In this document: in pieces, positions 1 through 1,324 of the stretch
Layout: each line of letters opens with the position of its first letter
Position numbering within the stretch: the stretch's first letter is position 1
From: Octopus vulgaris
Taxonomy: Eukaryota
Direction of reading: 5' to 3'
Assembly: GCA_951406725.2 (NCBI GenBank)
Contig: OX597827.1
Span: forward strand, 51,336,001 to 51,400,000
Length of the DNA: 64,000 nucleotides
Made by a program: the position numbers and the translations under genes
Notes under the pieces: generated by a model
Databases searched by the model: none
Told to the model about the DNA's origin: nothing
Seen by the model: only the letters and a program-made list of their open reading frames with translations

Positions 1-708
1 GGTTCATTAGAATTATCACGAAAATTTTCTTAGATACTCTACTTTAGTTCATTATCATCTTTAATGATAATAGTTCTTGCTTTTTTCTTTTTTTGTTAGC
101 TTTTATTTTTAATGTGAGAAGAGGCTCAATTTTAACTTTTCCATCTACCAATTTTAAATTTGTAACCCTTGCCCATGTAAATCTTCAAGATCTAGAGCTC
201 AACTTTAAGATGGACACTATATTTCAGACCTCTACATCCACTGTAGCTTGTCTCTCAAGAATGATCTTCTTTCTCCTTTTGATCTGTACATAAGGATGCA
301 AATAAAAAATGACATATTTCATTACTCTTTAGACTTCATTAATGATTTTTGGTACAAGGCTGAAAGGCAGTAGTAGTTTCTTTAGCACAAGTTAAACACC
401 ACAGAAGCCAAGATAAGTTCTAACCTAATTGGCCAATAGGCTCAAGACAGACTTTAACATTACACACATGTGCATGCGTGCACCCCCCACCCCACACACA
501 CATGCATGCACATATCTGTGTTGTGTGCATTTTTAATACATGCAATATCTTCAGCAAACAATGGTTAAAAAAAAACTGGAATGAGTCAAAATATGGTTCA
601 TTGCTAATTTAACTCAAACGTGGTAAATGACTGAAAGTATTTATGCATTATGGAGATGTACTTGCATAGCAAGTGATTTGATCTGAGATCGTGTGCTGAA
701 ACAAAAAC

Positions 709-971
709 AATTGCATCGTGGAAGGTGTTTATAAGCCATTTAAGAAATACACAAAAGCCGTTCGATTCACTTCAACATTTAAGTTTAATTTGTCAAAATA
801 TTTTCGTCGCTTTAAGACCGTGACCTGTTCAGCATGGATTTTTGTCAGTGAACAGGTCACGGTCTTAAAGTGACAAAAATATTTTGACAAATTAAACTTA
901 AATGTTGAAGTGAATCGAATGGCTTTTGTGTGTTTCTTAAATGGCTTACAAACACCTTCCACACTGCAATT
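709..971. repeat. 263-bp near-perfect palindrome (arms 709-831 and 849-971), probably inverted Penelope-like pLTRs
   Basis: The arms are reverse complements with few mismatches and a 17-nt spacer. Each arm carries an HHR-like motif. Confidence 0.85.
841..891 (+). ncRNA. Minimal type-I hammerhead-like motif with G3:C8 core
   Basis: TTTGTCA-GTGAACA-G-GTCAC(ggtcttaaa)GTGAC-AAAA-ATATTT-TGACAAA. Stem I is 7 bp, stem II is 5 bp and stem III is palindromic. G12 is A here but G in the mirror arm (789-832, minus). Confidence 0.55.
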
Positions 972-1324
972 ATTTATGCATTGAACTTTTGAAAGTTTGG
1001 ATTCCATTCTCGGGATAGTTCCAACTGCAGTTTCTATAGCTTTTTCTAGATGATAATGGCTGACTCTATGAAGACTATCTTGATAAGAGTTGATTACTAA
1101 GCCTTAGTAGCCAGTGTAGCATATGCTATGGGTCATACATCTTCAAGGCATCTGTGCTAAATGTATGCAAACTGGCAATTCTGATTCCATAATTCTGCCC
1201 ATGTTGTATTTCATTTTTTTTCTTGAGCCCTAAGACTCATAAGGCTGGTTACCCTGTTTCCATGGCAATATATGTGACCAAAATCACAGCATTTTCCAGA
1301 ACAGAGCACTGGACTATTGCAGGA

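Follow-up and report, generated by a model that had tools for sequence, protein, structure and literature searches.

Close to the start of a 64,000-nt window of Octopus vulgaris DNA (GCA_951406725.2, contig OX597827.1, 51,336,001-51,400,000, forward strand; the window is the whole stretch analysed, and positions count from its start) lies an insertion in fold-back form, made of two ends, both 5'-truncated, of a Penelope-like retrotransposon (PLE) that was recently mobile. The new feature of this family is its hammerhead motif, in which an otherwise intact core with G at position 3 and C at position 8 (G3:C8) stands in thousands of copies, in a family with very recent mobility and a canonical sister family. 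It is rather probable, judging from sequence comparison, that this swap was compensatory and was selected, and that it keeps a slow self-cleavage that would proceed in dimers or with protein help.

The insertion and its parent element

The insertion contains an inverted repeat with arms of 130 nt each (702-831 and 849-978) and a complementarity of 93%. The preliminary description had placed the palindrome at 709-971; it is real, and its extent was drawn too narrowly, the insertion spanning about 650-970 plus a 12-bp duplication on either side (Table 1).

Table 1. Features of the fold-back insertion, in window positions
Feature	Position	Strand	Basis
Target-site duplication, left copy, 12 bp	638..649	+	Direct repeat; 12-nt match in locus L001
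One-sided PLE tail, within the first ~30 codons of the element ORF	650..708	-	One-sided in 28 listed loci; frame continuous in L134
Left arm: 5'-truncated PLE 3' end; hammerhead from U4 on, GAAA intact	709..831	-	Sequence
Right-arm leader; 830-831 is a 2-nt microhomology with the left arm	830..840	+	Comparison with family leaders
Minimal type I hammerhead motif: G3 (848), C8 (853), G12A (875), predicted cut after 884	841..891	+	Sequence, fold, family state
Remainder of right arm; holds the ORF start codon (941)	892..970	+	Sequence
Target-site duplication, right copy, 12 bp	971..982	+	Direct repeat

The right arm had been read as a complete minimal hammerhead layout with a GUGAACA core, and both sequence and fold agree with this. 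The motif consists of: (i) stem I (841-847/885-891); (ii) the core GTGAACA (848-854), followed by an extra G at 855; (iii) stem II (856-860/870-874); (iv) AAAA in place of GAAA (G12A, 875), a change that is, as was suggested, consistent with CpG decay; and (v) the palindromic AATATT (878-883), followed by U17 at 884. It folds as a hammerhead at -12.1 kcal/mol (z -2.67), and 2 of 200 shuffles folded equally well. On the minus strand, the left arm retains GCGAC-GAAA intact (810-802), with an A-C mismatch in stem II, and has lost position 3 and the 5' strand of stem I at the junction. The kept GAAA and the lost strand had been recognised before; the reading of this arm as CUGAACA has to be withdrawn, since the arm stops at the 830-831 microhomology and G832 belongs to the right-arm leader, so that position 3 is absent and the supposed C3 is the complement of G832. 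The ATG of the ORF is present in both arms (941 on the plus strand, 739 on the minus strand), and the frame that opens at 739 translates as MAYKHLPRC... and passes into the tail. The entire palindrome is predicted to fold as a single hairpin of about -191 kcal/mol, so that the window copy, which also bears G12A, would be inactive, with its motif sequestered in a 130-bp hairpin.

A DNA search of the genome returned 80 matches from 40 scored of 2,057 candidates; except for the window itself, their identity was 87-95%. In the 28 loci listed, only one side of each copy of the family carries the tail. Of the 27 scored copies, 18 are flanked by a direct repeat of at least 9 nt that is not (TA)n (mostly 10-14 nt); six others lie in (TA)n sites and three have neither. 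Passages of PMC8557442 and PMC11167929 describe inverted 5'-truncated copies, a tail and (TA)n targets for endonuclease-bearing (EN+) PLEs.

The order of the parts is reverse transcriptase (RT), CX3CxxC linker, GIY-YIG endonuclease, 3' UTR of ~1 kb, hammerhead, ORF start and tail. Locus L128 has an open frame of 1,025 aa, and in L134 the frame from the ATG inside the arm continues through the tail into the element ORF. Pfam matched the GIY-YIG domain with an E-value of 1.4e-4 (22.5 bits; cut-off 22.6) and RVT_1 weakly (E 0.05-0.07), RT motifs being visible in the sequence; the linker, C-X3-C-X2-C, precedes the endonuclease in L093 and L128. The element is thus an EN+ Penelope-like element, with a single ORF for RT plus a GIY-YIG at the C-terminus, a pseudo-LTR that contains the ORF start, inverted 5'-truncated copies and a one-sided tail. 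The proposal of a natural swapped-core family was right; its context had been missed, namely that the motif is the pseudo-LTR hammerhead of an autonomous PLE. Twelve loci (L116-L127) are 100% identical to L126 across 570 bp of the ORF, and the family has therefore moved very recently, carrying the G3:C8 core.

Two further observations concern individual copies. By eye count, about 130 aa separate RT motifs A and B in L128 (3471-6545, minus strand), which we take to be long for a PLE with a C-terminal endonuclease; the extra length may be an insertion-in-fingers. In L092 (717-1608, minus strand), one PLE arm is interrupted by what is, from its motifs, presumably a broken mariner-like transposase.

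The core in the genome and in related families

Searches with exact flanks found G3:C8 in 5,132 matches, a position 8 other than C in 301, and a position 3 other than G together with C8 in 133. G3:C8 is therefore the state of 92% of these matches (5,132/5,566), and since all the reversed-pattern controls gave 0, the motif is not a product of chance. Because the exact-flank patterns fix the rest of the core, the core was also read in loci chosen by other criteria: (i) of the 34 arms in loci picked through the endonuclease protein, 32 have GTGAACA and an intact GAAA (one with a shifted register), one has an altered G12 and one a broken core; (ii) in 12 loci with long ORFs, 19 of 20 arms are intact and one is truncated; and (iii) in loci picked by upstream DNA, 25 of 33 have GTGAACA, four have single changes at position 3 or 8 and four are truncated. 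These counts confirm the expectation that GTGAACA with GCGAC-GAAA is the majority state of the family. They also remove the need to reconstruct an active form from the two damaged arms, as had been supposed, since the intact motif stands in thousands of copies.

One locus (L061, 2567-7550; G000:C2 near 17.91 Mb) holds a head-to-tail array of 30 units of 166 bp, with the G3:C8 core in 30/30. By its layout, the array is a natural multimer that would be suited to cleavage in dimers. Each unit includes a short (TA)n piece, and the array is bounded by tail and arm ends.

When copies were divided into six subfamily bins, the majority letter differed at 5 of the 9 columns in loop II and, in the core and stems, at only two columns, i.e., a CpG site and position 8 in the old bins, the latter because loci L170-L199 were selected for non-C8. 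Set against the downstream region, where 5 of 81 columns differ, this conservation is weak. In contigs from four runs with four organism labels, no alternative letter reached 3% at positions 3 or 8, at a contig depth lower there than downstream. Within the genome, G3:C8 is confined to the octopus PLE family: among the first 100 of 108 matches inspected for other families with this state, 99 belong to it.

Position 8 is altered in 301 matches, compared with 133 at position 3 and 93 at a control C of stem I that shares its trinucleotide context. By hand counts, G8 occurs in 36 of the first 100 non-C8 rows listed, against 21 of 93 changes at the control C (Fisher p 0.058). An intermediate G3:G8 subfamily was considered and rejected as a clade, copies with G8 or T8 being scattered over all subfamilies. 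An ancestral C3:G8 subfamily was likewise rejected: among 66 canonical-pattern matches there are only two such arms (L169/L201 and L200), chance alone would yield about 0.34 double mutants with the strict pattern, and the other arms of the L200 insertion are G3:C8. Both arms are probably point mutants.

The canonical-core pattern (66 matches; control 1) found mostly other PLE-type families of the same layout. Their 3' ends are homologous to that of the octopus G3:C8 family, four of five alignments beating all 300 shuffles (L207 failed). The nearest named protein, P0001, has about 57-58% amino acid identity to the element and is encoded in the same genome at 100% identity. On the RT-EN tree (15 rows; five loci left out for short frames), the P0001 family is the sister (57.7% aa identity; node 100/99), and its core is C3:G8. 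In this very young sister family (L267/L268 and L202-L231), frames reach 1,312 aa and many copies are 99-100% identical at the protein level.

Of 35 metagenomic relatives collected, 17 had 3' sequence and were searched with a motif that left 3:8 free. A clear motif was found in five, all Watson-Crick at 3:8 (C:G in L234, L237 and L238; U:A in L232 and L239), at 0.56 chance matches per shuffle set; in the other 12 the strict descriptor found no clear motif. Under looser inspection, L249 has U:A with a short stem II, and L255 is odd: its first two core letters seem to have changed places, so that it would read U3:G8 and C4. The proteins of L255 and L238 are near-identical despite their differing motifs.

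Since the sister family has C3:G8 and the five clear relatives are all Watson-Crick (three C:G and two U:A), selection probably acts on the 3:8 pair. Within one clade, a tertiary pair in three Watson-Crick states has the signature of selection on pairing, read from a small sample in which G3:C8 is a single event. The swap would have arisen from C3:G8 in the octopus PLE lineage. By our own calculation, a new Watson-Crick 3:8 pair results less than 1% of the time when two changes fall at random on ~11 core letters.

In the youngest sister lineage, 38/38 arms have C9, i.e., A9C without compensation, and older sister copies have A9 (the search pattern required A9). The metagenomic relative L232 also has C9; hence, the core is not strictly conserved in the clade. 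As the uncompensated A9C does not preclude very recent mobility, the element either tolerates C9 or can do without cleavage.

Probable self-cleavage and the alternatives to it

The G3:C8 motif likely still cuts RNA. According to passages of PMC3088659, positions 3 and 8 pair in the active hammerhead fold; the swap would retain this pair and leave a slow ribozyme. The AAUAUU palindrome could form helix III between two copies, and cleavage would follow U17 once helix III has formed in this way or with the help of the element protein, at a predicted site that precedes the ORF start by about 56 nt. U17, common to the family and its sister, possibly permitted the swap. A passage of PMC3884650 states that G3:C8 works better with G than with C at position 17 ("data not shown").

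Minimal metazoan hammerheads are described, in parts of PMC4209133, as weak cleavers that act only when dimeric or when helix III is closed. With two natural units of the array, a nearest-neighbour model without tertiary terms gave -47.8 kcal/mol for two monomers vs. -44.1 for the dimer, which is 3.7 worse. Among the first 100 of 550 rows, tallied by hand, the 5' junctions of copies showed no accumulation at the predicted site of cutting, about 17 falling on four positions around it vs. about 32 on six positions 3' of it.

The 5' ends of copies cluster 20-23 nt upstream of G3 (13 of 26 arms in L031-L060 and 16 of 30 in L170-L199), directly after a branch-point-like and acceptor-like sequence present in longer copies. 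A 3' splice site or a transcription start may lie at this point of the leader, ~21 nt upstream of G3, where a single loose end in run X14 stops in AG (two contigs, weak).

The absence of a junction pile-up weighs, like the less favourable dimer energy, against activity, and would suit a rather unlikely alternative, in which the fold, 3:8 pair included, was kept as a structural element (for protein binding, protection of the RNA 5' end or translation control upstream of the ORF) and catalysis was largely lost or irrelevant. The fixation of A9C in the young sister lineage, C9 in L232 and the position of the motif about 50 nt ahead of the ORF start point the same way. So do passages of PMC11167929 on PLE activity: PAc inserts with uncleaved RNA, and cleavage of the anole PLE required protein, was dispensable for insertion in vitro and was absent from RNA-seq. 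Nevertheless, pairing of 3 with 8 belongs to the active fold, and the young family keeps G12, A13, A14, G5, A6 and U16.1, which are not obviously all needed for structure. It is very improbable that the motif is a dead relic, in which two neutral mutations were carried along by a source element that happened to succeed and resemble compensation only by accident. In favour of this reading, there is one swap event only, in one lineage, PLE clades that lack hammerheads amplify well according to passages of PMC8557442, and the C-to-G share is sizeable at both C8 and the control C. Against it, subfamily changes are concentrated in loop II, all clear relatives keep a Watson-Crick 3:8 with three different pair types across the clade, and the chance of exactly such a pair of changes is low.

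If the motif cleaves, (i) the missing natural Watson-Crick state at the hammerhead 3:8 pair is filled; and (ii) CUGANGA descriptors are shown to overlook thousands of motifs in one genome. If it does not, a conserved silent fold would indicate a non-catalytic role. A matched natural set (the G3:C8 family and its C3:G8 sister, in forms that have A9C and forms that lack it) is also at hand, as are intact elements of very young age, for asking what PLE hammerheads do.

Comparison with known hammerheads and Penelope-like elements

By architecture, the motif belongs with the minimal hammerheads of PLEs: it has stems I and II of the minimal type I form, the extra base at 9/10.1, G10.1-C11.1, GAAA, a palindromic helix III region and a Watson-Crick 3:8 pair (G:C). 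It departs only from the CUGANGA letter rule, the box being GUGAACA in 5,132/5,566. As the preliminary description held, descriptors built on CUGANGA would overlook the swapped core, which follows from their wording. The Rfam covariance models gave no hammerhead match in the window or L099, nor in the canonical minimal motifs of L234 and L237, and are therefore blind to the minimal PLE class.

Tentatively, a catalytically competent G3:C8 core, with C at the general-acid position, could here be seen for the first time in a natural, high-copy animal hammerhead, carried by a recently mobile retroelement; the clade may be rewiring the "invariant" core (G3:C8, U3:A8, A9C), perhaps via U17 and protein help, and standard descriptors would miss whole families of PLE ribozymes. 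Lunse and colleagues reportedly surveyed about 150,000 PLE hammerhead variants. A natural G3:C8 was not found in the passages of the literature searched (none in those of PMC6765202, PMC6155905 and PMC6962438); Lunse et al. (2017), Przybilski and Hammann (2007) and the supplements of PMC4209133 and PMC3088659 lay outside the scope of the search.

As an element, the octopus family resembles the Neptune/Nematis-type EN+ PLEs in passages of Craig et al. (2021, PMC8557442): both have a C-terminal GIY-YIG, a CX2-5CxxC linker, inverted 5'-truncated copies, a one-sided tail and (TA)n targets, while the tail is 30-40 bp there and about 55-60 nt in octopus. The likeness to Neptune or Nematis is one of description, the RT-EN tree holding no reference-clade sequences.

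As a hammerhead, the motif shares with the minimal PLE hammerheads described in parts of Cervera and de la Peña (2014, PMC4209133) the pseudo-LTR site, the extra nucleotide between 9 and 10.1, G10.1-C11.1 and the dimer-suited palindromic 15/16 region, and inverted pairs 100-700 bp apart are described there too. However, those hammerheads have C3:G8 and a natural U3:A8, not G3:C8. The natural U3:A8 (passages of Perreault et al., 2011, PMC3088659; Schistosoma Cercyon PLEs, PMC4209133) is also compensatory at 3:8, but it takes two transitions and keeps a purine at position 8, whereas for G3:C8 two transversions are needed and the general-acid position receives a pyrimidine.

G3:C8 itself is on record as an engineered mutant (passages of PMC11167929, PMC8495972 and PMC3884650). 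The rescue by C3G/G8C on which the preliminary description relied holds in the laboratory, as a partial rescue (passages of PMC11167929 and PMC8495972). The same core letters were engineered, again with partial rescue, in the anole Poseidon PLE (passages of Frangieh et al., 2024, PMC11167929), where the hammerhead likewise goes with a tail and protein-assisted cleavage; that core is laboratory-made and stands in a different PLE clade, whereas the octopus family carries it naturally.
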